A DNA stretch of 33,362 bases from Bacillota bacterium (GTDB lineage: Bacteria; Bacillota; Sulfobacillia; JAJZYS01; JAJYTV01). How positions within the stretch are numbered: position 1 is the stretch's first letter; each line of letters begins with the position of its first letter. The stretch lies in assembly GCA_021806845.1 (NCBI GenBank), contig JAKAPV010000001.1, forward strand, positions 1 to 33,362, read 5' to 3'. Below are positions 1 through 30,682 of the stretch, in pieces. Position numbers and translations under genes: made by a program. The notes below the pieces were generated by a model. The model did not search any database. It was not told the origin of the DNA and was given only the letters and a program-made list of their open reading frames with translations.

Positions 1-599
1 GATCTGAGCCTCCCGAGACGGTCTGCTTCATCCAGTGCGTCGGCTCGCGCGACCGCCAGATCGGGAACAAGTACTGCTCCAAGGTCTGCTGCGGCATCGC
101 TTCCAAGCAGTCGATCGAGATCAAGCGCATGCTGCCGAACGCCAAGGTGTTCATCTTCTACATCGACATGCGCATGTACGGGTTCTGGGAGGACCAGATC
201 TACTGGAAGGCCCAGGAAGAGTACAAGGTCAACTACGTGCGCGGCATTGTGACGGAAGTCATCCGCAAGGGAGACAAGCTCCTCGTCAAGGGCGAGGACA
301 CGACGATGGGCCGGCCGATGGAAGTGCTGATGGATCTCGTGATCCTTTCGGTCGGCATGGAACCGTCGCGCGGGACGATCGACATGTCGCGCGTGTTTTC
401 GCTCCCGCGGGAGGAGCACGGATTCCTCGCCATCGTCGGAGGCCCCCTCGACACCGTATCGACCCCGGTGCAGGGCATCTATGTAGCCGGTGCGGCGGCG
501 GGGCCGAAGGACCTCGAGGACTCGATCTCGATGGGCGGAGCCGCGGCGATGAAGGCCGTCTCCCTGCTCGGTCGCATGCGGCGTATGGCCGCCCGGTGA
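1..599 (+). CDS. hdrA: Heterodisulfide-reductase-like subunit A (sHdrA), C-terminal part; the 5' end lies outside the window
   Basis: Frame 3 is open from base 3. The translation SEPPETVCFIQCVGSRDRQIGNKYCSKVCCGIASKQ... carries the HdrA-type CxGSRD / YCSxxCC cysteine motif, and later GIYVAGAAAGPKD. The TGA stop is at 597-599. Confidence 0.85.
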   Translation, partial: SEPPETVCFIQCVGSRDRQIGNKYCSKVCCGIASKQSIEIKRMLPNAKVFIFYIDMRMYGFWEDQIYWKAQEEYKVNYVRGIVTEVIRKGDKLLVKGEDTTMGRPMEVLMDLVILSVGMEPSRGTIDMSRVFSLPREEHGFLAIVGGPLDTVSTPVQGIYVAGAAAGPKDLEDSISMGGAAAMKAVSLLGRMRRMAAR

Positions 600-1315
600 G
601 CGTCCCGCTGATCGACGCGCAGGTACTCCAGGAGTTCCTCGACAAGGCCGAGCCGCTTCTTTCGGAGGCGGACCTGCGCGCGATCGGAGATTGCATGCAG
701 CGGCGCACCGGGGCCCTGCTCGCCGGCGATACGGACGTCGCGGAGGCGCTGCGGCAGGCCCCCGCGACGCGGCGGCTGCAGGCAAGGGATCTCGGCGGCT
801 GGGATGATCGGCTGCGGGAGATCTGGCCGCAGCTGCGGCAGGGGGATGCGGACGGAGCGCTTCTTCGGCTCTGCGAGCGGGAGGAGCCGCCGCCATGGAT
901 CGTCGATGCCGCGACCTTCTGGCTGCATGCCGCGAGTCCGGCGGAGAACCCCTGGTGGGCACGCTGGGTCCTCGAGCGAAGGCGCCGCACGGGCGCGATC
1001 CTGCTCCTGCTCGACGACCCCGGGGCCCTCGCCGAGGGCGGCACAGCTCAGGCATACGTTGACCTGCGGCAGGCGGTGCAGTTCCTGACGGAGATCCTCG
1101 CGGCGACGCGCAGGTTGCGGCCGGTCGCCCAGCCCTACCGGGCGACGGTGGCGCTCGCGGCGGTCTACGCGGTCTACATGTTCACGATGGCTTCCTGGAG
1201 GATGACGGACGAGTTCACCCAGGTGATGCCGCCCTTTCCAGGGGTGGTAGCGTCCCTGCTCGGGGTGGCCAGGCGGGAGGTGCGGTGCGTTGGAGGAGAA
1301 GGCGAAGGCGGTTGA
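596..1315 (+). CDS. Conserved hypothetical protein in the 'sHdrH' position between hdrA and the hdrCB-like gene
   Basis: GTG 596 overlaps the hdrA stop (GTGA). The part of ORF 35..1315 upstream of 596 is only the alternate frame of hdrA. I recognise no motif, so the call rests on position within the locus. Confidence 0.55.
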   Translation: MSVPLIDAQVLQEFLDKAEPLLSEADLRAIGDCMQRRTGALLAGDTDVAEALRQAPATRRLQARDLGGWDDRLREIWPQLRQGDADGALLRLCEREEPPPWIVDAATFWLHAASPAENPWWARWVLERRRRTGAILLLLDDPGALAEGGTAQAYVDLRQAVQFLTEILAATRRLRPVAQPYRATVALAAVYAVYMFTMASWRMTDEFTQVMPPFPGVVASLLGVARREVRCVGGEGEGG

Positions 1316-2573
1316 GCTCCCCTCGGTCACCATCGACGGGGTCACGCTCCCCGCACAGTGGAACCGGATGTTCGAGCCGCGCGTGATCAACCAGTACGAC
1401 ATATCGGTGCTGGAGGAGACGACCGCCATCCCCGGAGCGGAGTCGCTCGGCTACTGCTACCAGTGCGGCAAATGCACTGGCGTGTGCCCGATCGACACGG
1501 TCGGGGACTATTCGCCCCGCAAGATCTTCCGCAGGACCCAGATCGGCATTCCGCTGATCGACAGCCCGGACCTCTGGCTTTGCACGACCTGCCGCAACTG
1601 CCTGCGGGTCTGCCCGAAAGAGGTCAATATGATCGACATCATGCCGGCGGTGCGCGAACAGGCCGTCCTGGAGGGAAAGGCGCCGCAGGAGCTGCTGACC
1701 GCGTTCGAAAACACGGCGCGCTACGGCAACCCGCTCGGGGAGGCGCCGCGCAAGCGCGCCGACTGGACCAAGTCCGCCGGCGTCGAGGTCCGGATCATGT
1801 CCCAGCTGAAGGCGCCCGTCGACGTGCTCTGGTTCGTGGAGTGCTACCCCTCGTACCACCCGCGCGGCAAGGATGCCTCGGTCGCGCTCGCCCGCATCCT
1901 CGACAAACTCGGCATCGACTTCGGCATCCTCGGCGTGGAAGAGAAGTGCGCGGGGGACTCGCAGCGCATGGCCGGGGAGCGGGGGCTCTTCGAGATGCTG
2001 GCCGAGCAAAACATCAGCACGCTCTCCAAGTACGAGTTCGAAACGCTGATGGTCACCGATCCCCATGCCTACAACGCCTTCCTGCATGAGTACCCCAAGC
2101 TCGGCGGCAGCTACAAGACCGTCCACTACACGCAGCTCCTCGCCCCGCTCATCGATCAGATGGGCCTGTCGCAGGAAGTGCCCGCGCGCGTCACCTTCCA
2201 CGACCCCTGCTACCTCGGGCGGCACAACGGCGAGTACGAGGCGCCGCGGAGGCTCCTTGAGGCCATACCCGGCATCGACCTCGTGGAGATGGGTCGCTGC
2301 AAGGAGCGCTCCTACTGCTGCGGCGGCGGGGGCGGCGGCATGTGGCTCGACAGCTTCACCCGCGACCACACCAGTGCGCGCCTTTCGGAGATGCGGGTGC
2401 GCGAGGCGATCGAGTACGGGGCGGAGATCCTCGCCGTCGCGTGCCCGTACGAGGTGTCGCGCTTCGAGGATGCGGTCAAGTCGACGGGCAACGCCGGCCG
2501 GCTCAAGGTGATGGACATCTCCGAGCTGCTCGCGCTATCCATGGGGCTCATCCCGATGGAAGCGCTCGCCTGA
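1290..2573 (+). CDS. HdrC-HdrB fusion protein (sHdrB3-type): 2x[4Fe-4S] ferredoxin module plus two CCG domains
   Basis: CYQCGKCTGVCP and CTTCRNCLRVCP are ferredoxin motifs. FHDPCYLGRHNG and CCGGGGGG are CCG-domain motifs. A TTG start at 1290 lies 9 nt after GGGAGG and overlaps the previous gene by 26 nt. Confidence 0.8.
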   Translation: MEEKAKAVELPSVTIDGVTLPAQWNRMFEPRVINQYDISVLEETTAIPGAESLGYCYQCGKCTGVCPIDTVGDYSPRKIFRRTQIGIPLIDSPDLWLCTTCRNCLRVCPKEVNMIDIMPAVREQAVLEGKAPQELLTAFENTARYGNPLGEAPRKRADWTKSAGVEVRIMSQLKAPVDVLWFVECYPSYHPRGKDASVALARILDKLGIDFGILGVEEKCAGDSQRMAGERGLFEMLAEQNISTLSKYEFETLMVTDPHAYNAFLHEYPKLGGSYKTVHYTQLLAPLIDQMGLSQEVPARVTFHDPCYLGRHNGEYEAPRRLLEAIPGIDLVEMGRCKERSYCCGGGGGGMWLDSFTRDHTSARLSEMRVREAIEYGAEILAVACPYEVSRFEDAVKSTGNAGRLKVMDISELLALSMGLIPMEALA

Positions 2574-2588
2574 AAGGAGGACTTCCGC

Positions 2589-3347
2589 TTGCGCATCGCA
2601 GTCGTGATGAAACTGGTTCCCGACGTGGTGGAGGAACTCGTCCTCTCGGAGGACGGGAAGAGGCTCGAACGCGGCGACATCGCACTCAAGGCGAACGAGT
2701 TCGACGAGCAGGCCCTGGAACAGGCGCTTCTGCTCAAGGAGTCGTCCGGGGCGGAGCTGACCGTGATCGCCGCCGAGACGGGCGATGTCGACGAGATGCT
2801 CTATACCGCGCTCGCCAAGGGCGCGGACCGCGCCCTGAAGCTCGTGGGCGACGGTCTTCAGGACGGCATTTGGAACGCGCAGTATGCAGGCATTTTGGTC
2901 GACGTGATCGCGGACGTCGGCGCGGACGCGGTGCTGACCGGCGTCCAGGCGAACGACGACCTCGATGGGCAGCTTGCCACCTGGCTCGCGGCAGGTCTCG
3001 GCTGGTCCTTCGCGACGGTCGTCTCCGGGGTCGAGGCGGCGGGGGAGAGCCTCATCGCCAAGAAGGAGTTCGCGGGCGGACTGACGGCCAACTTGCGGCT
3101 GCCGCTGCCTGCGGTGCTGGGCATCCAGGCGTCCCCGGAGCCACCCCGCTACGCGCCCATCTCCCGGGTCCGCCAGATCATGAAGACCCAGTCGCTCGAG
3201 GAGCGAGAGGTGACGGCGCCGGCAGGGAGCATCACCGTTCTCTCGCTGCGGCCTCCCGAGAAGACGGGAGGCGCAGAGATGATCGAGGGAGACGTGCAGG
3301 CGAAGGCCGCGCGCATTGCGGAGGTCCTCGCGCAGCAAGGCATCTAG
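2589..3347 (+). CDS. etfB: Electron transfer flavoprotein beta subunit
   Basis: MRIAVVMKLVPDVVEEL... has the typical EtfB N-terminus and length (252 aa). A TTG start follows GAAAGGAGGA by about 8 nt. Confidence 0.85.
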   Translation: MRIAVVMKLVPDVVEELVLSEDGKRLERGDIALKANEFDEQALEQALLLKESSGAELTVIAAETGDVDEMLYTALAKGADRALKLVGDGLQDGIWNAQYAGILVDVIADVGADAVLTGVQANDDLDGQLATWLAAGLGWSFATVVSGVEAAGESLIAKKEFAGGLTANLRLPLPAVLGIQASPEPPRYAPISRVRQIMKTQSLEEREVTAPAGSITVLSLRPPEKTGGAEMIEGDVQAKAARIAEVLAQQGI

Positions 3348-3365
3348 GCTAAGGAGGTGGCACTG

Positions 3366-4307
3366 GTGAAGAAGGTACTCGCGTTCATCGATGTGGTGGA
3401 CGGCCAGCCGGGGGAGATCGGCTACGAACTCCTGGACTTCGCCCGGCAGGCGGCGCCGGAGGCGGAACTCGTGGCCGTCGGCGCAGGGCCGCAGGCCGCC
3501 CTCGAGGGACTTGCCGGCGCTGACCGGGCCCTCTGGACGGTCGCGGACGGCTACCGACCGGATCTCGTCGGCGAGGTGCTGACCGCCGCGATCGTCGCGG
3601 AGCAGCCGGACCTCGTGCTGGTTGGAAGCACTGCCGTGGGAATGGATGCCGGGACATATGCGGCGGCCAAGAGCGGCTACGCGAGCATCGCGTACGTGCG
3701 CTCGCTCGAGCCTCTGGACGGGAGCCTTGCAGCGCAGTCGGTGATCCTCGGCGGCAAGATGGTCGCGCGCGTCGCTGTGCCGGACCGAACGGTCCTGCAG
3801 GTCCTCGCCGGCGCGGGATCTGCGGAGCGCGGACGCGTCCCGGGTCGGCCGGCGCAGGTCGGGACCCTGGCGGAACCTGCGGCCAAGGCTTCGTTCGAAG
3901 GCTTCGGGCGGCCGGAGGCGCAGGACGTCGACATCACGCGCCACGATGTGCTCGTCAGCGTGGGCCGGGGCATCGGCGACGCGTCCAACATCGAACTCGC
4001 GGAGGAGCTCGCCGAGGCACTCGGCGGCGTGGTCTCCTCCTCGCGGCCGGTGGTCGACGCCGGCTGGCTGCCGAAGGCACGCCAGGTCGGCAAGTCGGGG
4101 AACAAGGTGAAGCCGAAGGTGTACCTCGCGCTCGGGATCAGCGGCGCGCCGGAGCACCTCGAGGGCATGCGCGACGCTGCCTGCATCATCGCCGTCAACA
4201 CGGACCCGGCTGCCCCGATCTTCGAGGTGGCGCACTACGGCGTCGTCGACGATGTACTCGACTTCATCCCGGCCCTCACGGAGTCGCTCCGGGTGCGCCA
4301 AGGATAG
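3366..4307 (+). CDS. etfA: Electron transfer flavoprotein alpha subunit
   Basis: The C-terminal FAD-binding signature SSRPVVDAGW...QVGKSGNKVKPKVYLALGISGAPEHLEGM is present. GTG 3366 lies 8 nt after AAGGAGG. The ORF-track start at 3357 overlaps the SD and is less likely. Confidence 0.85.
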   Translation: MKKVLAFIDVVDGQPGEIGYELLDFARQAAPEAELVAVGAGPQAALEGLAGADRALWTVADGYRPDLVGEVLTAAIVAEQPDLVLVGSTAVGMDAGTYAAAKSGYASIAYVRSLEPLDGSLAAQSVILGGKMVARVAVPDRTVLQVLAGAGSAERGRVPGRPAQVGTLAEPAAKASFEGFGRPEAQDVDITRHDVLVSVGRGIGDASNIELAEELAEALGGVVSSSRPVVDAGWLPKARQVGKSGNKVKPKVYLALGISGAPEHLEGMRDAACIIAVNTDPAAPIFEVAHYGVVDDVLDFIPALTESLRVRQG

Positions 4308-4319
4308 GAGGCCGTCCTC

Positions 4320-6449
4320 TTGCCGACAGGCACGGATCTGCCCGTCGCCCAGCGCGCTGTCTTCGAGGGATTCCAGCACAGCTGGCTCGTACCCCTCTTC
4401 TACGTGCTGGCGACGGTCGCGCTCATTATCTTCTTCTACGGGGTCTACCGCCGCGTCGGGCGCTACCGCGCAGGCAAGCGCGCGACGCTCGTGCGGGGCT
4501 GGCCACGCCGCATCGCCCGGTCCCTCATGGAGGTCCTGACCAGCCGGAGGATCGGGCGCCGCGACCGCTACACGGGCGTTGCGCACGCGTTCATCTTCTG
4601 GGCGTTCGGCTTCCTCTTCCTCGGAACCACGACCATCTTCCTCGACCACGACGTTCTTGGGCTCGTGGCTCCCTCGCTCGAGTTCTGGAAGGGAGCCTTC
4701 TTCCTCGGCTTCTCGGTCGTGATGGACGTGTCCGCTGCGCTCTTCATCATCGGACTTGTGATGATGGCGGTGCGCCGGGCCTTCTTCTCCACCTTCCGCC
4801 TGAGCTACCGCCGGGTCGACGGGAAGCAGCAGGACCGGTCCGCCTATGAACGCGAGGACTGGTGGTTTCTCGGCCAGCTGCTCTTGATCGGCGTCACCGG
4901 CCTGCTGCTCGAGGCGTTCCGGCTGATCCACGACCACCCGTGGTTCCAGGGCTACTCGCCGGTCGGCCTCGCGGTCGCAAAGGGGTTCGAGGCGCTCGGG
5001 ATGACGGCTCCCTCAGCCGGCGAGGCGCACTTTGTCACCTGGTGGGTGCACGCCTTCCTCGCGCTGACGTTCATCGCCTACATCCCGTACGCGAAGTCGG
5101 TGCACATGCTCGCGTCCTGGGCAAACGCCGCGGCGCGGGACGAGAAAGCGGCCGTCGTGCTGCCGACCCAGGAGACCGGAGCGCAGACGATCCCGCTGAC
5201 GCCCATCGCGGCAAACCTCACCTGGAAGCAGCTGCTCGCGGTGGACGCCTGCACGAAGTGCGGGCGCTGCCATGAGGTGTGCCCCGCGCGAACGTCGGGC
5301 GCGCCGCTCTCGCCGCGGGATCTCGTGCTCGACCTGCGCGAGTTCCTGGGCGGACGCCGCGGCACCGCCGCGGCCGCACAGGGGACGCTCTCCGCTGCCG
5401 CGACCGCCCTGCGCGACGACGGATCCCCTCTGATCTCCGCGGATGTGCTCTGGTCCTGCACCACCTGCCGGGCCTGCATCGAGGTCTGCCCGGTGGGGAT
5501 CGAGCATGTACCGCTGATCGTCGGCATGCGCCAGACACTGGTCGAGGAAGGCGAGATGGACCAGAACCTCGCGCAGGCCCTGATGAACCTCGGGCGCAAG
5601 GGCAACTCTTTCGGCCAGTCCGAGCGGGCGCGCGCCAAGTGGGCCGAACAGGCTGGCGTGCCGATCAAGGACGCGCGCACAGAGCACTGCGAGTACCTTT
5701 GGTTCGTCGGAGACTTCGCAAGCTACGACCCGCGCGCACAGCGCGTCAGCCAATCGGTCGCGCGCGTGCTGCACCATCTCGGCGTCGACTTCGGCATCCT
5801 CTTCGAAAGCGAGCGCAATGCGGGCAACGACGCGCGGCGCATCGGCGAGGAGGGGCTTTTCGAGTCGCTCGCGGAGAAGAATATGAAGGCGCTCTCGCAG
5901 GCGAGCTTCGACCGCATCTTCACGACGGACCCGCACAGCTACAACACCCTGAAGAACGAGTACCCCGCCTATGGCCTGGAGTGCGAGGTCCTGCACTACA
6001 CACAGCTGCTGCAGCGCCTGGCGGCGGAGGGCAAGATGCAGATCGTCGCGCCGCAGGACATCACCGTCACCTACCATGACCCCTGCTACCTCGGCAGGTA
6101 CAACCGGGTGTTCGATGCACCGCGGGAGCTCATTCGCCTGACGGGCGCGACGCTGCTCGAGATGCCGCGCAACCGCGAGGAGAGCTTCTGCTGCGGCGCC
6201 GGCGGCGGGCGCATCTTCACAGGCGACAGCCTGTACGGGGAGAAGCCGGCGGAAAGCCGCATCCGGGAGGCGGCAGGCCTGCACGGGATCGAGAGCTTCG
6301 TCGTGGCCTGCCCGAAGGACATGGCGATGTATACCGATGCGGCCAAGACGGCGGGTTACGAACAGCAGATCGCGGTCGAGGATGTCATCTTCCTGATCGA
6401 GCGCGCGCTTGGCATCGGAGCGAAGACACCGGAGGAGGTGAACGCATGA
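4320..6449 (+). CDS. Membrane-anchored HdrD/DsrK-like Fe-S oxidoreductase (putative Etf:quinone oxidoreductase, Emo/EtfD-like)
   Basis: The N-terminal ~270 aa are hydrophobic, with His in predicted helices (GVAHAFIFW, WWVHAFLAL, KSVHML). They are followed by CTKCGRCHEVCP and CTTCRACIEVCP ferredoxin motifs and two CCG domains (YHDPCYLGRYN, FCCGAGGG). A TTG start lies 8 nt after AGGAGG. Confidence 0.8.
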   Translation: MPTGTDLPVAQRAVFEGFQHSWLVPLFYVLATVALIIFFYGVYRRVGRYRAGKRATLVRGWPRRIARSLMEVLTSRRIGRRDRYTGVAHAFIFWAFGFLFLGTTTIFLDHDVLGLVAPSLEFWKGAFFLGFSVVMDVSAALFIIGLVMMAVRRAFFSTFRLSYRRVDGKQQDRSAYEREDWWFLGQLLLIGVTGLLLEAFRLIHDHPWFQGYSPVGLAVAKGFEALGMTAPSAGEAHFVTWWVHAFLALTFIAYIPYAKSVHMLASWANAAARDEKAAVVLPTQETGAQTIPLTPIAANLTWKQLLAVDACTKCGRCHEVCPARTSGAPLSPRDLVLDLREFLGGRRGTAAAAQGTLSAAATALRDDGSPLISADVLWSCTTCRACIEVCPVGIEHVPLIVGMRQTLVEEGEMDQNLAQALMNLGRKGNSFGQSERARAKWAEQAGVPIKDARTEHCEYLWFVGDFASYDPRAQRVSQSVARVLHHLGVDFGILFESERNAGNDARRIGEEGLFESLAEKNMKALSQASFDRIFTTDPHSYNTLKNEYPAYGLECEVLHYTQLLQRLAAEGKMQIVAPQDITVTYHDPCYLGRYNRVFDAPRELIRLTGATLLEMPRNREESFCCGAGGGRIFTGDSLYGEKPAESRIREAAGLHGIESFVVACPKDMAMYTDAAKTAGYEQQIAVEDVIFLIERALGIGAKTPEEVNA

Positions 6450-6877
6450 GTGAACGCTGCAAGCTCCCCGAGGAGCTCTATTACTGGCCGGAAAAGCATG
6501 TCTGGGCCCGGACCGAGCCGGACGGCAGCATCGTCGTCGGCATGACCGACGTCGCCCAGAACCTCGCCGGGAGGATCATCGTCGTGAGCCTCCGCTCGCT
6601 CGGCAAGACCCTCGCGCGCGGCAAGAGCGCGGGAACGCTCGAGAGCGGCAAATGGGTGGGGGCGATTCCGACGCCGGTCGCCGGCGAGGTGATCGCCGTG
6701 AACGACGGGTTGAAGGCGAACCCGTCGGTGATCAACGATGACCCGTACGGGGAGGGCTGGCTGATCCGCGTCGTGCCATCCGCGTGGGACGAGGATCGGC
6801 AGACCCTGGTCACGGGGCCGGACGGCGTGGCCGATTACCGCCGGCAGCTCGACGCCGCGGGCATCGCCTGCGCGTAG
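6446..6877 (+). CDS. lbpA: GcvH-like lipoate-binding protein (LbpA paralog 1)
   Basis: GcvH fold signatures are present (VVGMTDVAQ, DPYGEGWL) and the lipoyl-lysine context LESGKWVG is retained. The ATG overlaps the upstream stop (ATGA). Confidence 0.8.
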   Translation: MSERCKLPEELYYWPEKHVWARTEPDGSIVVGMTDVAQNLAGRIIVVSLRSLGKTLARGKSAGTLESGKWVGAIPTPVAGEVIAVNDGLKANPSVINDDPYGEGWLIRVVPSAWDEDRQTLVTGPDGVADYRRQLDAAGIACA

Positions 6878-6898
6878 GCAAGCCGGGGGGGTGAGGCA

Positions 6899-7363
6899 GT
6901 GGCGTTCGTCTACGCCTGCGAGTTCCCGGATCACCTCTGGTTCGACGTGGCCCGGGACGTCTGGCTGGAGGAGCTCCCGGGGGGCGGCCTGCGTCTCGGA
7001 ATGACGGATCCCGCGGTGACGCGGGCGGGACGCATCGTCCACGTGCGCGTGCGCGCGGGCAGGCAGGCGGCGCCCGGCCAGGGCGTCGCCAGCGTGGAGT
7101 CGAGCAAGTGGGTGGGCCCCGTGCCAACCCCGCTGGAGGCCCGCGTCCTGCGGGGCAACCCGCTGCTCGCCTCGGACCCCGGACTCCTGAACCGGGACCC
7201 CTACGGCGAGGGCTGGCTCGCGGAGATCGAGCCGGTCGCTGCCGCGCCGGACCTGCGGGCGCTGGGCTTGAGGTACGGCACCGACGCGCTTGCGCCGTAT
7301 ACCGAGAAGCTCCGCCAGGAGGGGCTCAACTGCATCCGCTGCGCCGACGGCGCAGGCCAGTAG
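6899..7363 (+). CDS. lbpA: GcvH-like lipoate-binding protein (LbpA paralog 2)
   Basis: LGMTDPAVT, VESSKWVG (lipoyl-lysine context) and DPYGEGWL are present. A GTG start follows a G-rich SD. Confidence 0.8.
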   Translation: MAFVYACEFPDHLWFDVARDVWLEELPGGGLRLGMTDPAVTRAGRIVHVRVRAGRQAAPGQGVASVESSKWVGPVPTPLEARVLRGNPLLASDPGLLNRDPYGEGWLAEIEPVAAAPDLRALGLRYGTDALAPYTEKLRQEGLNCIRCADGAGQ

Positions 7364-7379
7364 GCAGGGGAGGAAAGGC

Positions 7380-8444
7380 ATGCGCTATCTCGACTTCGGC
7401 ACCGTCAGCGCCGAGCAGTCCCAGGCCGTCTACCATGCTGTCGCCGAAGAGCTCAGGCCCGGGGACCCCATCACCCTGATCACCGTGAGTCCTGACAGGC
7501 CCTACGTCTGCGTCGGCTACCACCAGGCGGCGAGCAGGGAGATCGACCGCGCCTACTGCGAGGAGCAGGGGGTGCCGGTCGGCCGGCGGATGGTCGGGGG
7601 CGGCGCCGTCTACCTCGATCATGACCAGATCTTCTGGCACCTCGTGATGCCTGGCGGGGCGCCCCCCGTCCAGGCCTTCTACGACCGCCTGCTCTCCGCG
7701 CCCGTCGGGGCGTACCGCGACATTGGCATCCAGGCGGAGCACCGGCCCGTGAACGACATCGTCGTCGGGCCGCGGAAGATCGGCGGCACCGGCGCCGCTT
7801 CGATCGGCCAGGCAAACGTGCTCGTCGGCAGCATCATGATGGACTTCGACACGAAGGCCATGGCCCGCGTCCTGCGCGTCCCTTCGGAGAAGTTCCGCGA
7901 TAAGCTCATCTCCTCGCTCGACGACTACATGACGACGATCCGCCGCGAGCTCGGAGACGGGGCGCCCACGCGCGAAACGGCGACGGCTCGTCTGGTCTCC
8001 CGCTTCTCAGAGGTGCTCGGCGAGCGGGTGGAAGCCTCGGCGCTCTCCCCCGGCGAGCGGGAACGGCTGGATCATTACGCGCAGATCCTCTTCGACCCGG
8101 AGTTCGTCTACCGCCAGGAGGGGTGGCTCCAGCCGGGCGTCAAGCTCAAAGACGGCGTGCGCCTGTACGAGGGCGTGCACAAGGCCCCCGGGGGACTCCT
8201 CCGCTTCATTTACCGCGACCGGGAGGGGGTGTTCGACGACGTTCTCCTGAGCGGGGATTTCTTCGTGGACCCGCCGGATGCGCTGCAGCGGATCGCACGC
8301 TCGCTGCTCGGACGTCCGGCCTCGGAAGAGGTCCTGCGCCTGCTGCTGGAAGAGGGACTCGCACACGCGGCGATGCCCGGGGTCGGGGAGGAGGACTTCC
8401 TGCAGGCGTTCCGCGCCGCGAAGGCGATCGAGGCGACGGTCTGA
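7380..8444 (+). CDS. Lipoate-protein ligase (LplA-like, single polypeptide with C-terminal accessory domain)
   Basis: MRYLDFGTVSAEQSQAVYHAVA..., RRMVGGGAVYLD and KIGGTGAASIG are LplA/LipB/BirA-fold signatures. ATG 7380 follows GGGGAGGAAAGG. It lies next to the two lbpA genes. Confidence 0.8.
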   Translation: MRYLDFGTVSAEQSQAVYHAVAEELRPGDPITLITVSPDRPYVCVGYHQAASREIDRAYCEEQGVPVGRRMVGGGAVYLDHDQIFWHLVMPGGAPPVQAFYDRLLSAPVGAYRDIGIQAEHRPVNDIVVGPRKIGGTGAASIGQANVLVGSIMMDFDTKAMARVLRVPSEKFRDKLISSLDDYMTTIRRELGDGAPTRETATARLVSRFSEVLGERVEASALSPGERERLDHYAQILFDPEFVYRQEGWLQPGVKLKDGVRLYEGVHKAPGGLLRFIYRDREGVFDDVLLSGDFFVDPPDALQRIARSLLGRPASEEVLRLLLEEGLAHAAMPGVGEEDFLQAFRAAKAIEATV

Positions 8445-8463
8445 GACCGAAGGAGGTTGATCT

Positions 8464-8706
8464 GTGATGGAAACGGCGAAGGCAGCATTGACGATCGACG
8501 CGAAGGGGCTCGCGTGCCCGCTGCCGGTGATCCGGGCAAAGAAGGGGATCTCGTCGGTGGAGATCGGAGAGGTCATTGAAGTCGTGTCGACCGATCCCGG
8601 TTCCATGGCGGACTTCCAGGCCTGGGCCCGCTCCACGGGGCACGAACTCGTGAGTGCGCAGCAGGACGGCAGCGTGTACACCTACCTGATCCGACGCACC
8701 AAGTGA
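8464..8706 (+). CDS. tusA: TusA-family sulfurtransferase
   Basis: The 80-aa protein has the GLACPLPV (Cys-Pro-x-Pro) active-site motif. GAAGGAGG lies upstream. The start is GTG 8464 or ATG 8467. Confidence 0.85.
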   Translation: MMETAKAALTIDAKGLACPLPVIRAKKGISSVEIGEVIEVVSTDPGSMADFQAWARSTGHELVSAQQDGSVYTYLIRRTK

Positions 8707-8721
8707 CGGGAGAGGTGCCAG

Positions 8722-9102
8722 ATGTCCGATGAGGCGAAGAAGTTTCTCTACATCCAGACAACCGGCGTCGAGGCTCCCGAGCGGTCTGCGTCGCCGTTCT
8801 TCCTGGCGACAACCGCCGCACTGATGGACCACGAGTCGACCATGGTGTTCACGATCACCGCGACGAGTCTGCTGAAAAAGGGCGCTGCGGACAACCTGCA
8901 CATCAAGTCGACCGGAGAGAGCCAGAATCTGCGCTTCTTCATCGACCAGGCCCGCGACGCGGGCGTTCGCTTCTTCGTCTGCGCCCCCAGCCTGGACCTC
9001 AACGACTGCACGGTCGACGACCTGATCGAGATCGATGGCGTGGTGGGCGGCACGGCACTGAACGAGATGGCGGCAGAGGCGGATGTCGTCATCACCTTCT
9101 GA
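8722..9102 (+). CDS. dsrE: DsrE/DsrF-family sulfur-carrier protein
   Basis: The 126-aa protein has the DsrE-like layout (FLYIQTTG...; conserved Cys in RFFVCAPSL). It lies directly after tusA. Confidence 0.75.
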   Translation: MSDEAKKFLYIQTTGVEAPERSASPFFLATTAALMDHESTMVFTITATSLLKKGAADNLHIKSTGESQNLRFFIDQARDAGVRFFVCAPSLDLNDCTVDDLIEIDGVVGGTALNEMAAEADVVITF

Positions 9103-9634
9103 GGGACGCAAGAGCGCGTGGCCTGCCTGGCTGACCGCCCTGCAGCAGATCACCCCCGAAAGCGCCGTGCCCGAGGTGCTGACGGCCCTTGAGCGAGGGC
9201 TTGGCGCAGAAGGACATTGGCTTGCGCGGCTGTCGAACACCGTCGCGCTCTTGCGCCGCTACCTGCCGGATCTCTTCTCCGCGGGCTTCTACATCACGGC
9301 GCGCCCGGGCACCCATCTCTGGCTCGGACCATACCAGGGACCGCCTACGTTTGCCCAGGTGGAGTGGGGGGACGGGGCCGTCGGCTCCGCGGCGAACGAG
9401 CGCGCGGTGCAGATCATCGCGCAGCTCAGGCGCTTCCCCAACTACGTTCCGGCGTACCGGGCGATCCGCTCGGAGATCGCCCTCCCGCTGGTGCGCGACC
9501 GCATGGTCCTGGGTGTCCTGGACGCCACCTCAGAGGCCGAGGCGCGCTTTGGCATCGTCGAGGCGGAGTTCCTTTCGCTCTGCGCCGAGCGCATTGTGCG
9601 CGCCTGGCCGCAAGGCAGCGCAGGCATCCCCTGA
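9083..9634 (+). CDS. GAF-domain protein of the free-methionine-(R)-sulfoxide-reductase (YebR/fRMsr) fold, lacking the catalytic cysteines
   Basis: GFYI...LWLGPYQGPPTFAQVEWGDGAVGSAA...FPNYVPAY...SEIALPL...LGVLDATS is colinear with the E. coli YebR pattern GFYL..LGPFQGKIACVRIPVGRGVCGTA..FDGHIACD..SEIVLPL..IGVLDIDS (recalled from memory). The start is uncertain; ATG 9083 overlaps dsrE by 20 nt. Confidence 0.7.
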   Translation: MSSSPSEGRKSAWPAWLTALQQITPESAVPEVLTALERGLGAEGHWLARLSNTVALLRRYLPDLFSAGFYITARPGTHLWLGPYQGPPTFAQVEWGDGAVGSAANERAVQIIAQLRRFPNYVPAYRAIRSEIALPLVRDRMVLGVLDATSEAEARFGIVEAEFLSLCAERIVRAWPQGSAGIP

Positions 9635-9727: not shown

Positions 9728-11035
9728 CTATCCGCGCACGTGCCCCGCGCCGCGGACGACGTACTTGTAGCTCGTCAATTCCCGCAGTCCCATCGGGCCG
9801 CGCGCATGCAGCTTCTGTGTGGAAATGCCGATCTCGACCCCAAGCCCGAACTCGTAGCCGTCGGTGAAGCGGGTCGAGGCGTTGTGGTAGACGGCGGCTG
9901 CGTCCACCTCTGAGAGGAAGACCTCGGCTGCGCTCACGTCCTCCGTCACGATGGCCTCGGAGTGGCGGGTGCCGTACCGCGCGATGTGCGCCAGAGCGGC
10001 ATCGAGGCCTTGCACCACGCGCACCGCGAGGATGAGTCCCAGATACTCCGTGTCCCAGTCTTCCTGCGTTGCCGCACGGACGCGGGGCTGGTCCTCGCCG
10101 CCCAGGATCGCGAGCGCCTGCGGGCAGGCCCGCAGCTGCACGCCGCGCGCCGAAAGGTCCGCAGCGAGGCTCGGCAGCCACTGCTGGGCAACGTCCTCGT
10201 GCACGAGCAGCGTCTCGATCGCATTGCAGACGGACGGGCGCTGCGTCTTCGCGTTGACGACGATCTTCCCTGCCATGTCGAGATCCGCCGCGCGGTCGAC
10301 ATAGACGTGGCAGTTGCCCACGCCCGTCTCGATCACCGGCACCAGAGAACGCTCGCCCACGTGGGAGATGAGGCCGGCGCCGCCCCGAGGGATGGCCAAG
10401 TCTACGAGGCCCTTTGCGCGGATCATCAGGTCGACGGTTTGTCGCTCGACCTTCTCGATGAACTGGACGGCCCCGGATGGCGCACCGACCGCCTCGAGGC
10501 CCGTGTGGATGGCCGCGACCAGTGCCGCGTTCGAGCGCAGCGCCTCGCTCCCGCCGCGCAGCACGGCTGCGTTGCCCGTCTTCAGGGTGATCGCGGCGGC
10601 ATCTACGGTGACGTTCGGCCGCGACTCGTAGACGATGGCGACCACGCCAATCGGCACGCGCAGCTTCTCGATGCGCAGTCCGTCGGGGCGCACCGCATAT
10701 TCGAGAAGCTCGCCGATGGGATCAGGGAGGGCGGCGACGGCCTCGAGGCCCTCCTGCATCTGACGGATGCGCTCCTCGCTGAGCACGAGGCGGTCTAGCC
10801 GCGCGTCGTCCATGCCTTCGCGCCTGGCTGCGTCGACGTCTTCGCCGTTCGCTTTCAGGATCGCCGCACGCCGCTGCCACAAGGCCTCGGAGATCGCGCG
10901 CAGAGCAGCATTCTTCTCGGCGGTCGACAGTCTGCCAAGGGGTCCGAGCGCCCCTCGTGCCGCGCGCAGCCGCTGCGTCACATACGCTTCAAGTCCGCGG
11001 TCCCGCGATCCCGACTCCAGCATCGACGGCTGCAT
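9728..11035 (-). CDS. proA: Gamma-glutamyl phosphate reductase
   Basis: It has full-length aldehyde-dehydrogenase-type ProA similarity (AIPRGGAGLI, VGNCHVYVD, NASTRFTDG). ATG 11035 lies 8 nt after AAGGGGG and overlaps the proB end. Confidence 0.95.
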   Translation of the reverse strand: MQPSMLESGSRDRGLEAYVTQRLRAARGALGPLGRLSTAEKNAALRAISEALWQRRAAILKANGEDVDAARREGMDDARLDRLVLSEERIRQMQEGLEAVAALPDPIGELLEYAVRPDGLRIEKLRVPIGVVAIVYESRPNVTVDAAAITLKTGNAAVLRGGSEALRSNAALVAAIHTGLEAVGAPSGAVQFIEKVERQTVDLMIRAKGLVDLAIPRGGAGLISHVGERSLVPVIETGVGNCHVYVDRAADLDMAGKIVVNAKTQRPSVCNAIETLLVHEDVAQQWLPSLAADLSARGVQLRACPQALAILGGEDQPRVRAATQEDWDTEYLGLILAVRVVQGLDAALAHIARYGTRHSEAIVTEDVSAAEVFLSEVDAAAVYHNASTRFTDGYEFGLGVEIGISTQKLHARGPMGLRELTSYKYVVRGAGHVRG

Positions 11036-12161
11036 CGAGCTCTACCCCCTTCAAGGCGGACATCTCTCTGTGGTGCACCACTCGGAACTCCCGCGCGTGC
11101 CCGCCGGACGAACGGTGTTGCAGCCGGGCCTGCAAGTCCCATGAGGAGCAGTTGACGATCCCCTTGCCGATCACGCGCCCCGAAGGCGCGGCGAGCTCGA
11201 CGACGTCACCCGCCCGGAAGACGCCGGACACCTCAGTGATGCCCGGCAGGAGGAGGCTTGCGGACCGTCCGAGGACGGCAGCCACCGCCCCGTCGTCCAG
11301 CGTGAGCCTGCCGCCGGCGCGCTTCGCGTGCAGCATCCAGAGCTTCTTGCGCGGCAGGGGGTCCCGGCGTGCGTGGAAAGTGGTGCCGAGGAGCTCCCCG
11401 GCGACGACGCGGCAGAGGACGGAGGACTCGTTCGACGACACGATCACCGTGTCGATTCCGGCGTCCATCGCGATGCGCGCGGCCTCGAGCTTGGTGCTCA
11501 TTCCCCCGGTGCCGATCCGCGAACCAGGGCTGCCGGCCATCCGGGTGAGGGACTCGGTGACGCTGTAGACGTCCTGGATCCTCCGCGCCGTGGGTACGAC
11601 GCGCGGGTCTGCGTCATAGAAGCCGTCGGTGTCGGTGAGCAGAACGAGAAGGTTTGCGTCCGCCACCATGGCGACGAGTCCAGCCAGGGTGTCGTTGTCG
11701 CCGAACTTGAGCTCGTCGACGGCGACCGTGTCGTTCTCATTGACGATCGGGAGGAGTCCGTGGCGCAGGAGGGTGCTCAAGGTGTTGCGCACATGGACGT
11801 AGCGGCGCCGGTCATCGAGATCACCGCGCACGAGCAGGAGCTGCGCCACCTCGATGCCGTGCGGCCCGAAGAGTTCGCGATAGGCGTCGATCAAGAGGCT
11901 CTGCCCGACAGCGGCGGCAGATTGCCTCTCGCGCAGGGTAACCTCTCCCGGGCGCCAGCCGAGCCGGCCAAGACCTGCGGCGACCGCGCCGGAAGAGACC
12001 AGGATAACCTCCGCACCGCCGCCGCGCAGCAAGGAGATCTGCGCTGCGAGCGACGCCATGCGCTCCGGGGAGAGGAGTCCGTTCGATCCCGTGAGGCTGC
12101 TCGAGCCAACCTTCACCACTACCCGACGCGCACCCACCACGAGCCCCTCCGATCGGCGCAT
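10989..12161 (-). CDS. proB: Glutamate 5-kinase with C-terminal PUA domain
   Basis: RVVVKVGSSSLT, FGDNDTLA and GTGGMSTKL are amino-acid kinase motifs, and the PUA-like tail has GDVVEL / GKGIVN. The start is ambiguous: ATG 12176, ATG 12161, or GTG 12137 (6 nt after GGAGGGG). Confidence 0.93.
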   Translation of the reverse strand: MRRSEGLVVGARRVVVKVGSSSLTGSNGLLSPERMASLAAQISLLRGGGAEVILVSSGAVAAGLGRLGWRPGEVTLRERQSAAAVGQSLLIDAYRELFGPHGIEVAQLLLVRGDLDDRRRYVHVRNTLSTLLRHGLLPIVNENDTVAVDELKFGDNDTLAGLVAMVADANLLVLLTDTDGFYDADPRVVPTARRIQDVYSVTESLTRMAGSPGSRIGTGGMSTKLEAARIAMDAGIDTVIVSSNESSVLCRVVAGELLGTTFHARRDPLPRKKLWMLHAKRAGGRLTLDDGAVAAVLGRSASLLLPGITEVSGVFRAGDVVELAAPSGRVIGKGIVNCSSWDLQARLQHRSSGGHAREFRVVHHREMSALKGVELDAAVDAGVGIAGPRT

Positions 12162-12187
12162 GCAACTCTGATGCATATCAATTCATA

Positions 12188-12217
12188 CTTATACCCTACA
12201 TGACGGGGTGGCGTCAA
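12188..12217 (-). promoter_or_regulatory. Candidate sigma-A-type promoter for proBA
   Basis: The minus strand reads TTGACG (12217-12212), an 18-nt spacer, then TATAAG (12193-12188), 11 nt upstream of ATG 12176. Confidence 0.4.
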
Positions 12218-12488
12218 TCGCTGGCTGCCTTGCGGTTGGGACGTGAGAGCACTAGCGGCTGGCCTGCCGATGCGCTGCGGGACGCAAGTTTATGCGCTTG
12301 TGCGCATGCTGATGGGCGCAAGGCGTCCGGCTCGGGTGCCGCCGCATTCCGCGAAGGTCAGGCGGGGGTCGATGCAGAACTGTTCTGCCAAGACCGTACG
12401 CGTGTTCGAAATTCCCAAGTGGCCGCTTTGGCGGCTTTCTGAGATTCGCAGGGACGGGAAGGCGACCCGAGTGGCGCAGACGCTCCTG

Positions 12489-12896
12489 ATGGTGGGAACG
12501 GCCAAGGGCCTGTTCCTTTTTTCTTCGGATAACCGCAGATCGTGGCGGGCGAGCGGTCCGCATTTTCCGGAGACGCCGGTCTACACGGCGGTCTTCGACC
12601 CTCGCACAGGGACGCTACTCGCCGGCGTCAACTCTGAGTTCTACGGACCTTCGATCCGGCGCTCGCGGGACCTCGGCGAGACATGGGACGCGGGCGGCTC
12701 CGGACTGCAGTACGGGGCCGACGACCCGGAGAAGGTCAGCCGTGTCTGGTCGATCTTCCCGGGCGGCACCGGCGAACCGAACGTCATTTACGCGGGGGTC
12801 GAGGCGAGCGGCCTCTTCCGCTCGGACGATGGCGGCGACACCTGGTCGGAGATCGCTTCGCTGCGCGCGCACCCGACCCACGACCTCTGGGGGTAG
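12489..12896 (+). pseudogene. 5' fragment of a BNR/Asp-box (sialidase-like beta-propeller) gene, interrupted by the IS element
   Basis: MVGTAKGLFLFSSDNRRSW... contains Asp-boxes SRDLGETW and SDDGGDTW. The frame ends ...HPTHDLWG-TAG exactly where AT-rich IS sequence begins. Confidence 0.7.
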
Positions 12897-12924
12897 GAAC
12901 TGCGTGAAAATATCTAGATGATTC

Positions 12925-12953
12925 TTGAAACATATGGAGATTTGATCTATGAT
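12925..12953 (+). promoter_or_regulatory. Candidate tnpA promoter predicting a leaderless mRNA
   Basis: TTGAAA (12925-30), a 17-nt spacer and TATGAT (12948-53) are followed by 6 nt and ATG 12960. No SD lies between them. Confidence 0.45.
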
Positions 12954-12959
12954 ATAAGC

Positions 12960-13604
12960 ATGCTGGTAAGTATCAAGGAAGCCGCCAGAGAACTGGGCGT
13001 ATGGCCGGAGACATTGCGTCGCTGGGAAGCCGAGGGGAAGATCGAGCCGCCGATGCGCACCCCCGGAGGGAGAAGGCGCTACGATCTCGCCAAGCTGCGC
13101 GGGCTTGCGCCGCACAAGGCGCCCTCGGCGCGCCAGACCCTGCTCTACGCGCGTGTCTCAAGCCACGACCAGAAGGAGGACCTCGTGCGCCAGGTGGCGC
13201 TGCTCGAGTCCTTCAGCGCTGCGAACGGCTGGACCTACGAAGTGCTGCAGGACCTGGGTTCCGGCCTCAACTACCACAAGAAGGGCCTTCGCCTCTTGAT
13301 CAAGCGCATCTGCAGCGGCGAAGTCGGGCGCTTGGTGATTACGCACAAGGACCGCCTGCTGCGCCTGGGCTCCGAACTCGTCTTCTCGCTCTGCGAACAG
13401 TTCGGAACGGAGGTCGTGATCGTCAACGCCTCGGAAGAAGCGAGTTTTGAAGAAGAACTCCTGGAGGACGTCCTGGAGATGATCACCGTGTTCTCCGCAC
13501 GACTTTATGGCAGCCGCAGCCACAAGAACAAGCAGCTACTCGACGCCCTGAAGGCGGCGGCAAACGTGGTGGCAGGTGGGCCTCCACTGGAGGCTCACCC
13601 GTGA
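12960..13604 (+). CDS. tnpA: IS607-family transposase TnpA (MerR-like HTH plus serine recombinase)
   Basis: MLVSIKEAARELGVWPETLRRWEAEGKI is the HTH. LLYARVSSHDQKEDL holds the catalytic-Ser motif. VITHKDRLLRLG is the resolvase core. In-frame ATG 12960 is preferred over the ORF-track start at 12918. Confidence 0.9.
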   Translation: MLVSIKEAARELGVWPETLRRWEAEGKIEPPMRTPGGRRRYDLAKLRGLAPHKAPSARQTLLYARVSSHDQKEDLVRQVALLESFSAANGWTYEVLQDLGSGLNYHKKGLRLLIKRICSGEVGRLVITHKDRLLRLGSELVFSLCEQFGTEVVIVNASEEASFEEELLEDVLEMITVFSARLYGSRSHKNKQLLDALKAAANVVAGGPPLEAHP

Positions 13605-15127
13605 AGCGAACAGCGAAGTATGCGACCCTTCCCCTCAACCGGGGCAAGCGCAACATGCTGCGCTCTCTGATTGACGCCTTCGCGAACCTGAAGGACCTGG
13701 CGCTGCGCACGCTCTCAAGAACCAGGCAGTGGCACTATCTCGACGGTCGCTGGCAGGTCTTGCGCGACGTGATGAAGCCGCGTTACGCAAAAGGTGTGCC
13801 CGTCCACCTGCAGGACCAGGCCATCAAGGACGCCGTTCTCACCATGCGTCGCTGGATCGAGTCGGTCATCGCACTCACCCATCTGAAGAAGCGGATCTTC
13901 GTACGCTTCGAGAAGCAGCAGCGGCACTACGCATTCTGGCTCCTGCGCAGATACGGGCGGATCGGCGCCGTGCTGCGGGGCGAGGCGCCCGTGCCCAAGT
14001 TCGAGATTGCGGCGAGGGAGCGCAAGGAGGTCGTGCGCTTCCTGCACCGGATCCTGCGGCACGCACTGGGCAGGGCGCCGCGCATGAATGTGCGTCGGAG
14101 CGTGGCGCTCGACACCTCGCTCTATAGGGTGTTCGAGCACAGAGGGCGCGTGTATGTGGCCATCGCGTCTTCCGTTCGTGGCGAACGCCTTGTGCTGCCG
14201 CTGCGCGGCCAGGGGCGAATCTCGGGAGACATCCGCGTGGTGTTCGACATGGGCCGCAGGACCGGGTTCGTGCATATGGCCTACAACGTGCGGGTGCCCG
14301 TCCAGCCTGCGACCGGCGCAGCGGTCGGCCTCGACGCCGGCGTGACGGAGGTGCTGGCTGCGTCGAGCGGAGAGAAGTACGGCCACGGCTACGGCGTCCT
14401 GCTCGATCGGCTGTCGCAGGAGACGACGGAGACCGGCAAGGCGCGCAACAAGCTCTCCCAGATCGCGAACAGGGCCGAGGAGAGGGGGCGCAAAGCGCGG
14501 GCTGCCGGTGGCAGCCCAGGAGATGCGAAGAAAGCCTCGCGCATCCGGCGCCAGAACCTTGGCAGCAGGAAGCTCAACGTGAAGCGCGCACGCGGCGAGG
14601 CGGCGGTGAAGACGATGGTGGGTCAGGCGGTGCGCGCGGCGCTCAAGGACCGTCCGTCCGTGGTGGCCGTCGAGGACCTTTCTCACTTGCGGGGACGCAC
14701 CAAGAGCAGAAGGCTCTCGCGCGTCGTTTCGCGCTGGGCGCGCTCAGTATTGCGCGAGAGGCTAGAGTTCCGTGCCGAGGCGGGACGTTCCCGCCTGGAA
14801 ACGGTCAACGCCGCGTACACAAGCCAGGCCTGCCCCAATCCGGCGTGCGGCTTCGTCCACAAAGACAACCGACACGGGGACAGGTTTCACTGCCTGCACT
14901 GCGGGTGGGATGGTGACGCGGACGTTGTCGCCGGAATGAACCTCCTCGCCAGGGTGGCCGATCCCGAGATTCATCTTTGGACACCCAAGGAGCGGGTGAA
15001 GGCCATCCTGGAAGCGAGGTTCCGTCGCCGGAAGGAGACCGGGAACCTGGTTCGCCCTGTGGACCAGGGAAACGGCACACCGCTCCCGGCCGGGCTCCAG
15101 AGCAGCCATGCGGGTACAGCTGTCTGA
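13601..15127 (+). CDS. tnpB: TnpB (IS605 OrfB-family RuvC nuclease, RNA-guided OMEGA-type), 508 aa
   Basis: RuvC-I is VGLDAGVTE, RuvC-II is VVAVEDLSH, the zinc ribbon is CPNPACG...HCLHCG, and RuvC-III is GDADVVAGMNL. The GTG start overlaps the tnpA stop (GTGA). Confidence 0.9.
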   Translation: MKRTAKYATLPLNRGKRNMLRSLIDAFANLKDLALRTLSRTRQWHYLDGRWQVLRDVMKPRYAKGVPVHLQDQAIKDAVLTMRRWIESVIALTHLKKRIFVRFEKQQRHYAFWLLRRYGRIGAVLRGEAPVPKFEIAARERKEVVRFLHRILRHALGRAPRMNVRRSVALDTSLYRVFEHRGRVYVAIASSVRGERLVLPLRGQGRISGDIRVVFDMGRRTGFVHMAYNVRVPVQPATGAAVGLDAGVTEVLAASSGEKYGHGYGVLLDRLSQETTETGKARNKLSQIANRAEERGRKARAAGGSPGDAKKASRIRRQNLGSRKLNVKRARGEAAVKTMVGQAVRAALKDRPSVVAVEDLSHLRGRTKSRRLSRVVSRWARSVLRERLEFRAEAGRSRLETVNAAYTSQACPNPACGFVHKDNRHGDRFHCLHCGWDGDADVVAGMNLLARVADPEIHLWTPKERVKAILEARFRRRKETGNLVRPVDQGNGTPLPAGLQSSHAGTAV

Positions 15128-30501: not shown

Positions 30502-30524
30502 GCAGGGCATGAAGCCATACAGCC

Positions 30525-30653
30525 CCTTCTTCCATCCCGACTCTAACGGTCGGCCCCGGATTTTCACCGGATCGGCCCCAGTTGCCTGGGGTTCGCGGGC
30601 TCGGCCTTGCGGCCATCACCGCCGGTACGGAATTTCACCGGACCCTGAAGGAG
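30525..30653 (-). promoter_or_regulatory. FMN riboswitch (RFN element) aptamer
   Basis: The minus strand reads CCUCCUUCAGGGUCCGGUGAAAUUCCGUACCGGCGGUGAUG...GAGCCCGCGAAC...GAUCCGGUGAAAAUCCGGGGCCGACCGUUAGAGUCGGGAUGGAAGAAGG. This matches the conserved RFN core blocks and lies at the head of the rib operon. Confidence 0.9.
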
Positions 30654-30682
30654 GATATCGCGCCTATGCATTTGGTGCCGTC

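Follow-up and report, generated by a model that had tools for sequence, protein, structure and literature searches.

The 33,362-nt contig JAKAPV010000001.1 of the Bacillota bacterium assembly GCA_021806845.1, analyzed here over its full length and called the window, opens with a run of plus-strand genes for a heterodisulfide-reductase-like complex of sulfur oxidation (sHdr) with its lipoate-carrying partner protein, LbpA. The first gene, shdrA, is cut by the contig end, leaving its C-terminal 198 codons (1-599). The GTG start of shdrH (596-1315), which encodes a conserved hypothetical protein of 239 aa, overlaps the shdrA stop and is followed by shdrB3 (1290-2573), a 427-aa HdrC-HdrB fusion with Pfam CCG and Fer4 (2x[4Fe-4S]) domains. 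The beta and alpha subunits of an electron transfer flavoprotein (ETF) are encoded by etfB (2589-3347; Pfam ETF) and etfA (3357-4307; Pfam ETF and ETF_alpha), the latter with a start at 3366 in the ENA record. Next to them, emo (4320-6449) encodes a 709-aa ETF:(methyl)menaquinone oxidoreductase (EMO), or EtfD-like protein, in which Pfam and NCBIfam recognize a NarI/QmoC-like N terminus, Fer4, and CCG. Two GcvH-like lbpA genes with Pfam GCV_H domains come next, the first copy with the motif ESGKW (6446-6877) and the second with ESSKW (6899-7363). The remaining genes are slpl(AB), a lipoate:protein ligase gene (7380-8444; Pfam LplA-B_cat and the NCBIfam LplB small-subunit model), tusA, a sulfur carrier gene with a CPLP active site (8464-8706; Pfam TusA, 2.5e-23), a dsrE3A-like sulfurtransferase gene with Cys87-X8-Cys96 (8722-9102; Pfam DsrE), and a gene for a 183-aa GAF protein of the fRMsr/MsrC family (9083-9634; Pfam GAF_2), which overlaps dsrE3A by 20 nt.

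An earlier note, made from the DNA alone, had listed eleven of these genes, and the open reading frame list places all eleven where it had them, on the plus strand and with the domains it claimed, Pfam and NCBIfam agreeing on each. The translations contain the ESGKW, ESSKW, and CPLP motifs that it quoted. Its description of genes that mostly overlap or lie less than 25 nt apart is also borne out, the junctions being gaps of 9-22 nt except for three overlaps, of 4, 26, and 4 nt. As to the extent of the cluster, its eleven genes stand, but it missed the GAF gene, which is a twelfth in the same direction. Domain E-values across the cluster genes run from 1e-15 to 1e-50, so that the genes are far beyond chance. 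Convergent proA and proB come after the GAF gene, and the operon thus ends there. A scan of the operon and its flanks for sigma-70 promoters gave 0 promoters, not above the shuffled expectation, and a scan of the same region for intrinsic terminators gave 8 against 5.0 +/- 2.4 expected from shuffles, with none at the operon end.

The window is the whole contig, and the region before base 1 is readable only from a sibling assembly. A 43-kb ENA metagenome contig that encodes exactly the same sHdrB3 protein, referred to as L001, aligns with 11,757 bp of the window at 99.98% identity. Immediately before window base 1, it encodes DsrE (157 aa), sHdrC1, which is a 227-aa di-cluster ferredoxin, sHdrB1, which is a 398-aa CCG protein, and full-length sHdrA (354 aa). 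The hdrC1 and hdrB1 genes that had been predicted upstream are both found there, after dsrE2 and before shdrA. Together, the two contigs give the full operon order dsrE2-shdrC1-shdrB1-shdrA-shdrH-shdrB3-etfB-etfA-emo-lbpA-lbpA-slpl(AB)-tusA-dsrE3A-GAF. By the definition of Tanabe et al. 2024 (PMC11094781), a type II sHdr-LbpA system has shdrC1B1AHB3 together with etfAB in a single syntenic cluster, and emo as well. Since L001 supplies the missing 5' genes, the whole cluster agrees with this published definition, in keeping with the type II call of the earlier note; the genes by which that note had characterized type II, a fused HdrCB in place of HdrC2 and HdrB2 plus EtfAB and a membrane oxidoreductase, are all present. 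We conclude with high confidence that the window holds the 3' three-quarters of a type II sHdr-LbpA operon, which belongs to an uncultured Bacillota lineage rich in GC. Tanabe et al. 2024 (PMC11094781) counted type II in 130 GTDB assemblies, including all sHdr-containing Bacillota, usually accompanied by TusA and DsrE3A, and regarded it as functionally unproven, which agrees with the remark of the earlier note that little biochemistry lies behind this form. No later biochemistry on type II was found in the literature searched.

The earlier note had also thought lipS1, lipS2, or lipT possible upstream of base 1. This part of the prediction failed: tblastn with LipS1 and LipS2 of the Bacteroidota locus L047 (identified by NCBIfam) found nothing in the window or L001, 42 kb in all, while LipT was not searched separately. 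The same two queries match inside most Bacteroidota and Calditrichota loci by tblastn. In the type II clusters of those phyla (for example L038, L050, and L052, and L047 at 10352-13969), lbpA-lipS1-lplA-lipS2 stand between shdrB3 and etfBA, and the Bacillota loci have no lipS genes within +/-10 kb, L021 excepted. Beyond the 5' end of the cluster, in L001 1-5195, there are a divergent 96-aa XRE-type helix-turn-helix (HTH) gene 0.6 kb upstream of dsrE2 and the gene of a giant protein, longer than 1700 aa, that combines beta-helix (NosD-like) and SLH domains. The XRE-type HTH gene is a candidate operon regulator, and no ArsR-type sHdrR regulator was seen.

The sHdrB3 protein has 7611 homologues at E<=1e-10 and is 77-80% identical to those of Sulfobacillus (S. 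acidophilus and Sulfobacillus sp. hq2), Kyrpidia tusciae, and Ca. Hydrogenisulfobacillus. Relatives of it are encoded in 537 stretches of GTDB species representatives, the best match being 80%; the genome studied here is thus not one of the representatives scanned. The 80 best loci were compared, and counts are given over 81 fetched loci (L001-L081). C1, B1, A, B3, EtfB, and EtfA occur together in 54 of the 81 loci, in several phyla, and EMO is present too in 46 of those 54. The gene order of the window, down to the GAF gene at its end, is also that of S. benefaciens AMDSBA4, S. thermotolerans Kr1, and Alicyclobacillus tolerans, and a second order, with etfBA-emo at the end, is found in S. acidophilus-like genomes. 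These two orders are the "Hdr cluster IIa" and "IIb" of Sulfobacillus described by Justice et al. 2014 (PMC4378227). In S. thermotolerans Kr1 (L007 5515-8977), an insertion of ~3.8 kb with an rve-family integrase and an AAA_22 ATPase separates shdrA from shdrH; the insertion is transposon-like, and the operon is split in that cultured strain.

The host was examined through its RibBA protein, encoded by ribBA (27561-28757, minus strand) in the rib operon. Its nearest named relatives, 64-67% identical, belong to the thermophilic Bacillota Thermacetogenium, Moorella, Thermanaeromonas, and Carboxydothermus, and about twenty metagenome RibBA proteins are 80-92% identical to it. GC content varies from 61 to 71% along the window. 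By the RibBA relatives, the earlier description of the host as "GC-rich Firmicutes-like" is fair, and the organism is not Sulfobacillus itself.

Solved structures anchor only some of the proteins, as the PDB holds no LbpA, sHdrB, or sHdrC and its anchors are limited to sHdrA, DsrE, ETF, EMO, and GAF. Full-length sHdrA aligns over residues 6-352 with residues 4-347 of H. denitrificans sHdrA (PDB 6TJR, 349 aa) at 267 bits, whereas methanogen HdrA chains (~650 aa) cover it in part and score ~207 bits. This short form with an end-to-end match to 6TJR bears out the view that HdrA is of the sHdr rather than the methanogen type. The shdrH product has no Pfam or NCBIfam match, and an shdrH-like gene, 23-49% identical by tblastn, stands between shdrA and shdrB3 in most related loci. 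The HdrCB fusion is likewise of the sHdr kind, being orthologous to sHdrB3 of the Sulfobacillus, Kyrpidia, and Alicyclobacillus type II clusters. It has two CxxCxxCxxxC motifs, at C56-C66 and C98-C108, and a single CCG motif at C343-C344, while its first CCG-like repeat retains only C185 and C220. Such fusions of an HdrC-like and an HdrB-like part have been described as binding only one noncubane cluster (Tanabe et al. 2024, PMC11094781). Additional invariant cysteines of sHdrB3 are C185, C220, and C337.

The genes after shdrB3 outline a possible route for electrons to the membrane. The best solved relatives of EtfB are non-bifurcating ETFs (1O94, 98 bits; 1EFP, 81; 1EFV, 68), with lower scores for the bifurcating ETFs 5OL2 (60 bits) and 4KPU (49), and EtfA matches 6FAH_A at 142 bits and 1O94_D at 134 bits. 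Judged by its closest solved relatives, the window EtfAB would be an ordinary ETF of the non-bifurcating type. The best solved homologue of EMO is EtfD of M. smegmatis (9OJN, 243 bits), for which cryo-EM and assays show that ETF is wired to menaquinone, and in the EMO-ETF structure of S. aciditrophicus (SaEMO), the ETF FAD docks at the clusters of the CCG domain. The window EMO resembles EtfD and SaEMO in having a membrane domain of the NarI type, two cubane [4Fe-4S] motifs, and a CCG domain for noncubane clusters. Among 60 shdr-linked EMOs, the eight cubane-motif cysteines are conserved, and C589, C624, C625, and C664 are the only conserved set of noncubane cysteines; C457 and C555, which could belong to a second, distal cluster, are not conserved. 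The solved EtfD and SaEMO, however, retain two cluster sites in the CCG domain, the comparison on the shdr-linked side being by orthologue alignment. In the membrane domain, H89 and H262 are the only two well-conserved histidines (56 of the 60) and fit one haem, compared with three haems in SaEMO and one in EtfD. The window EMO also has no long disordered C terminus. The single noncubane cysteine set and the two membrane histidines suggest that the shdr-linked EMO is a shortened electron wire with a single noncubane cluster and a single haem, and the distal cluster site may have been lost in this subfamily. While acyl-CoA dehydrogenases are the electron source of EtfD and EMO, the source for the window EMO would be the sulfur-oxidizing complex in the model proposed below.

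The sHdrB3 protein aligns with the cytoplasmic part of EMO over 396 aa at 38% identity (E 3e-85) and is by this measure a paralogue, with no membrane anchor, of the EMO cytoplasmic module. As that module docks ETF in the solved complex, sHdrB3 is the likely site at which ETF docks on the sHdr complex and takes up electrons, a donor-side counterpart to EMO on the acceptor side. The etf-emo products and the sHdr core differ in their conservation (window 2589-6449 versus L002-L027). EtfB, EtfA, and EMO are 39-50% identical to their counterparts in Sulfobacillus and 61-65% to those of Alicyclobacillus tolerans (L009), whereas for the sHdr core proteins, identity is 72-84% with Sulfobacillus as well as with other Bacillota loci, which hints at a separate history of the etf-emo module or at different constraints from those on the sHdr core.

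The two GcvH-like proteins were compared with GcvH in several ways. Both fall below the cut-off of the GcvH equivalog model TIGR00527 (115.85 bits), with 89.7 bits for the first and 43.2 for the second. They are 29-41% identical to solved GcvH (E. coli, Thermus, and Thermotoga) and 47-70% identical to the positional LbpAs of Sulfobacillia loci, the first copy being 60-70% identical to the first LbpA. A neighbor-joining (NJ) tree with Kimura distances was built from 141 GcvH-like open reading frames of the fetched loci and the three solved GcvH sequences. Each window LbpA falls in its own clade of shdr-linked LbpAs, the second among second-position LbpAs, with the solved GcvH outside; these splits have bootstrap values of 46-50%. 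The reading of these proteins in the earlier note as LbpA is favored by their grouping with shdr-linked LbpAs and weakened by the bootstrap values; since these are only 46-50%, LbpA membership rests mainly on conserved linkage. A third GcvH-like gene of A. tolerans was considered as a true-GcvH reference and dropped, since the SGKW motif of its product and its dsrE2-like and lplA-like neighbors compromise it as an outgroup; the solved GcvH sequences were used in its place. That gene belongs to a second set of dsrE2-like, lplA-like, and GcvH-like genes adjoining the shdr cluster in A. tolerans (L009 18971-20941) and also in L016, L021, and L022, and the third GcvH-like protein beside the A. tolerans cluster scores above the GcvH equivalog cut-off despite its LbpA-like ESGKW.

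The ligase carries LplA-B_cat at residues 13-207 and an LplB-like small domain at 265-347, that is, the Lpl(AB) domain order, and has positional orthologues in Sulfobacillia (53-66% identical), Chloroflexota, and others by tblastn. A leucine at X of CPXP has been described for TusA proteins of sulfur oxidation, and the CPLP of the window TusA fits that type. The sole solved match of the downstream DsrE is 3MC3, and the upstream DsrE on L001, which also aligns end to end with the DsrE2 model, matches 2QS7 best; Liu et al. assign 3MC3 to SSO1125 DsrE3A and 2QS7 to DsrE2B of S. solfataricus. The C-X8-C of the downstream DsrE (Cys87 and Cys96) is conserved in 24 Bacillota loci.

The GAF protein matches 3MMH (4.9e-18), 3KSF, 1F5M, and 1VHM over ~140 residues, with E-values from 5e-18 to 1e-14. 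It thus shares its single-GAF fold family with fRMsr/MsrC, the free methionine-(R)-sulfoxide reductase. However, the catalytic and resolving cysteines of fRMsr are all replaced in the window protein and 24 orthologues (LAC to PTF, GVCG to GAVG, and HIAC to YVPA), and with all three gone, the known fRMsr chemistry is closed to the protein. All 25 Bacillota loci that reach this position have an orthologue after dsrE3A, the GVCG and HIAC cysteines being absent in every one, and in the IIb gene order, the GAF gene lies inside the cluster, between dsrE3A and etfB. The protein could be a subunit that binds or senses a small molecule, such as a sulfur compound or oxidized sulfur. The term "GAF" is absent from the text of both Justice et al. 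2014 (PMC4378227) and Tanabe et al. 2024 (PMC11094781). That the GAF protein is an unremarked, lineage-specific component of Bacillota type II systems and, at the same time, that sHdrB3 is the ETF-reducing face of the sHdr complex is a joint proposal that we put forward tentatively, rating it somewhat short of an even chance.

By analogy, the cluster is thought to serve in sulfur oxidation, and a sequence of steps can be proposed from the type I sHdr literature and the solved EtfD and EMO structures. Both LbpAs would be lipoylated or octanoylated by the ligase of the cluster. Sulfane sulfur, or a thiosulfonate, would be relayed by DsrE3A/DsrE2 and TusA to the lipoylated LbpAs and the sHdrC1B1A core, which together would oxidize the sulfur to sulfite in the cytoplasm. 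Electrons would exit via sHdrA (FAD) and sHdrB3 to EtfAB. EMO would then reduce menaquinone with them, by way of two cubane clusters, a single noncubane cluster, and a b haem, and so feed aerobic respiration.

Several points weigh against this assignment. The role of type II is inferred from Hyphomicrobium type I genetics and host physiology (PMC11094781), and the organism itself is uncultured and known from metagenome contigs. No sulfite-oxidizing, SQR, SOR, or TTH genes were found in the window by family scans, and the 42 kb of window and L001 are without lipS1 and lipS2. The LbpA-GcvH split has an NJ bootstrap of only 46-50%, and the published LbpA/GcvH trees of Cao et al. also leave the Firmicutes split and the deep nodes unresolved. 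The DsrE subtype calls rest on best solved matches, and the C-X8-C of the window protein differs from the C-X7-C of the archaeal DsrE3A prototypes. Finally, a related hdr-etf-lbpA cluster in Thermomicrobium roseum was up 45-fold under nutrient limitation and not with added sulfur.

This last observation leads to the alternative that survives best, namely that the same machinery oxidizes endogenous or organic thiols and persulfides for maintenance, persistence, or detoxification rather than supporting lithotrophy on inorganic sulfur. The hdrABC-etfAB-tusA-dsrE-lbpA homologue was the most induced locus of T. roseum (~45-fold, nutrient limitation), and its authors proposed the oxidation of thiol compounds. 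Relatives of sHdrB3 also occur in many lineages that are not known for sulfur lithotrophy (among them Saprospiraceae, Cyclobacteriaceae, Ktedonobacteraceae, and Dormibacterota), and the window has no other dissimilatory sulfur genes. However, the cultured Sulfobacillus spp. that carry the identical cluster are established oxidizers of sulfur, only two sulfur-oxidation modules, Hdr cluster II among them, are conserved throughout that genus (PMC4378227), and the type I system is genetically required for the oxidation of thiosulfate and dimethyl sulfide. We consider oxidation of thiols in place of inorganic sulfur unlikely, and the two readings are not mutually exclusive.

Sulfur oxidation by one joint system could also be an illusion of chance juxtaposition, with EtfAB and EMO serving acyl-CoA beta-oxidation, the GcvH-like proteins and the ligase serving glycine cleavage or lipoate salvage, and only the hdr genes serving sulfur. 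The experimental role of EMO/EtfD is indeed to link beta-oxidation to menaquinone, and the first LbpA scores 122.9 bits with a broader GcvH subfamily model, above its cut-off of 117. On the other hand, all module borders are overlaps of 4 nt or gaps of 9-22 nt, and the combination that recurs in 54 of the 81 loci spans several phyla, in which two gene orders shuffle the modules yet retain them all together. Moreover, neither the window nor L001 contains an acyl-CoA dehydrogenase gene, gcvT, or gcvP, both LbpAs are under the GcvH equivalog cut-off, and type I LbpAs cannot replace GcvH. Independent modules are therefore largely refuted by synteny already, and we regard them as very improbable. 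We give almost no weight to the view that this is a methanogen-, Flx-Hdr-, or Qmo-type Hdr, reductive or bifurcating, that acts on heterodisulfide or in NADH/ferredoxin balancing: although the best named NCBIfam matches are methanogen HdrA, HdrB, and HdrC, these are the only Hdr models in NCBIfam, which has none specific for sHdr, and all matches are far below threshold (258 bits against a cut-off of 1100 for HdrA, where the window fragment is matched only by the central profile positions 373-570 of ~775, so that the ferredoxin domains of methanogen HdrA are absent), while sHdrA matches 6TJR best over its full length, EtfB is nearest to non-bifurcating ETFs, and no mvh, flx, qmo, or fdh genes lie within the 42 kb of window and L001.

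Family scans found no further sulfur genes in the remainder of the window, which contains proBA, an IS607-like element, an EamA transporter, an ABC transporter, an epimerase, a phosphoesterase, a BNR protein, MFS and SSF transporters, the rib operon, and a Lon-like protease. Conserved downstream proBA synteny was considered as an argument for vertical descent and dropped, as the synteny is not conserved. The IS607-like element comprises a MerR-HTH/serine-recombinase gene of the IS607 family (12918-13604, plus strand), recognized by family scan, and, after it, a gene for an IS607-family TnpB or Cas12f-like protein with a TNB domain (13601-15127, plus strand); the 217-aa open reading frame that precedes the element (12243-12896) has no family match. 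Upstream of ribD (29358-30446, minus strand), an FMN riboswitch was identified at 30520-30656 on the minus strand (Rfam RF00050, 107 bits), and tRNA and Rfam scans of the window gave nothing besides it. The BNR/Asp-box repeat protein (20380-22281) and the LonB/LonC-like AAA protease (30829-33351), both encoded on the minus strand, are unrelated to the sHdr cluster.

The sHdr-LbpA pathway is one of the main cytoplasmic routes for oxidizing sulfane sulfur, and no other use of lipoate in sulfur energy metabolism is known. Type II is still without biochemistry, and each well-resolved locus is thus useful for comparative work. The present locus extends a well-described system to a new uncultured lineage and otherwise adds little. 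The same arrangement in the cultured, tractable Sulfobacillus, Alicyclobacillus tolerans, and Kyrpidia offers a better path to experiments. Three details that invite testing are that the cysteine-less GAF gene is conserved, that sHdr-linked EMOs seem to have lost the distal cluster site relative to the newly solved EtfD and EMO structures, and that sHdrB3 and EMO are paralogues, which suggests where ETF docks on the sHdr complex.

Comparing the locus with known systems, the closest counterpart is Hdr cluster IIa, as the window arrangement was already drawn for Sulfobacillus in 2014 (PMC4378227). Both contain dsrE2, shdrC1B1AH, the fused shdrB3, etfBA, and the long membrane "hdrC" (EMO), followed in order by two lbpA genes, the ligase gene, tusA, dsrE, and the trailing GAF gene. 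However, the host differs from Sulfobacillus, being a different uncultured Bacillota lineage rich in GC (~68%). With the type I sHdr-LbpA systems of Hyphomicrobium denitrificans, Aquifex, and Acidithiobacillus (shdrC1B1AHC2B2), the locus shares the fold and length of sHdrA, the sHdrC1, B1, and H proteins, probable LbpAs with a dedicated Lpl(AB) ligase, and a sulfur relay of TusA and DsrE. In contrast to type I, the single-CCG fusion sHdrB3 replaces C2 and B2, and EtfAB and EMO are added. In addition, lipS1 and lipS2 are not linked to the cluster in the window and L001, with LipT not searched separately, and no sHdrR/ArsR-type regulator was seen, a divergent XRE-type HTH gene standing 0.6 kb upstream on L001 instead.

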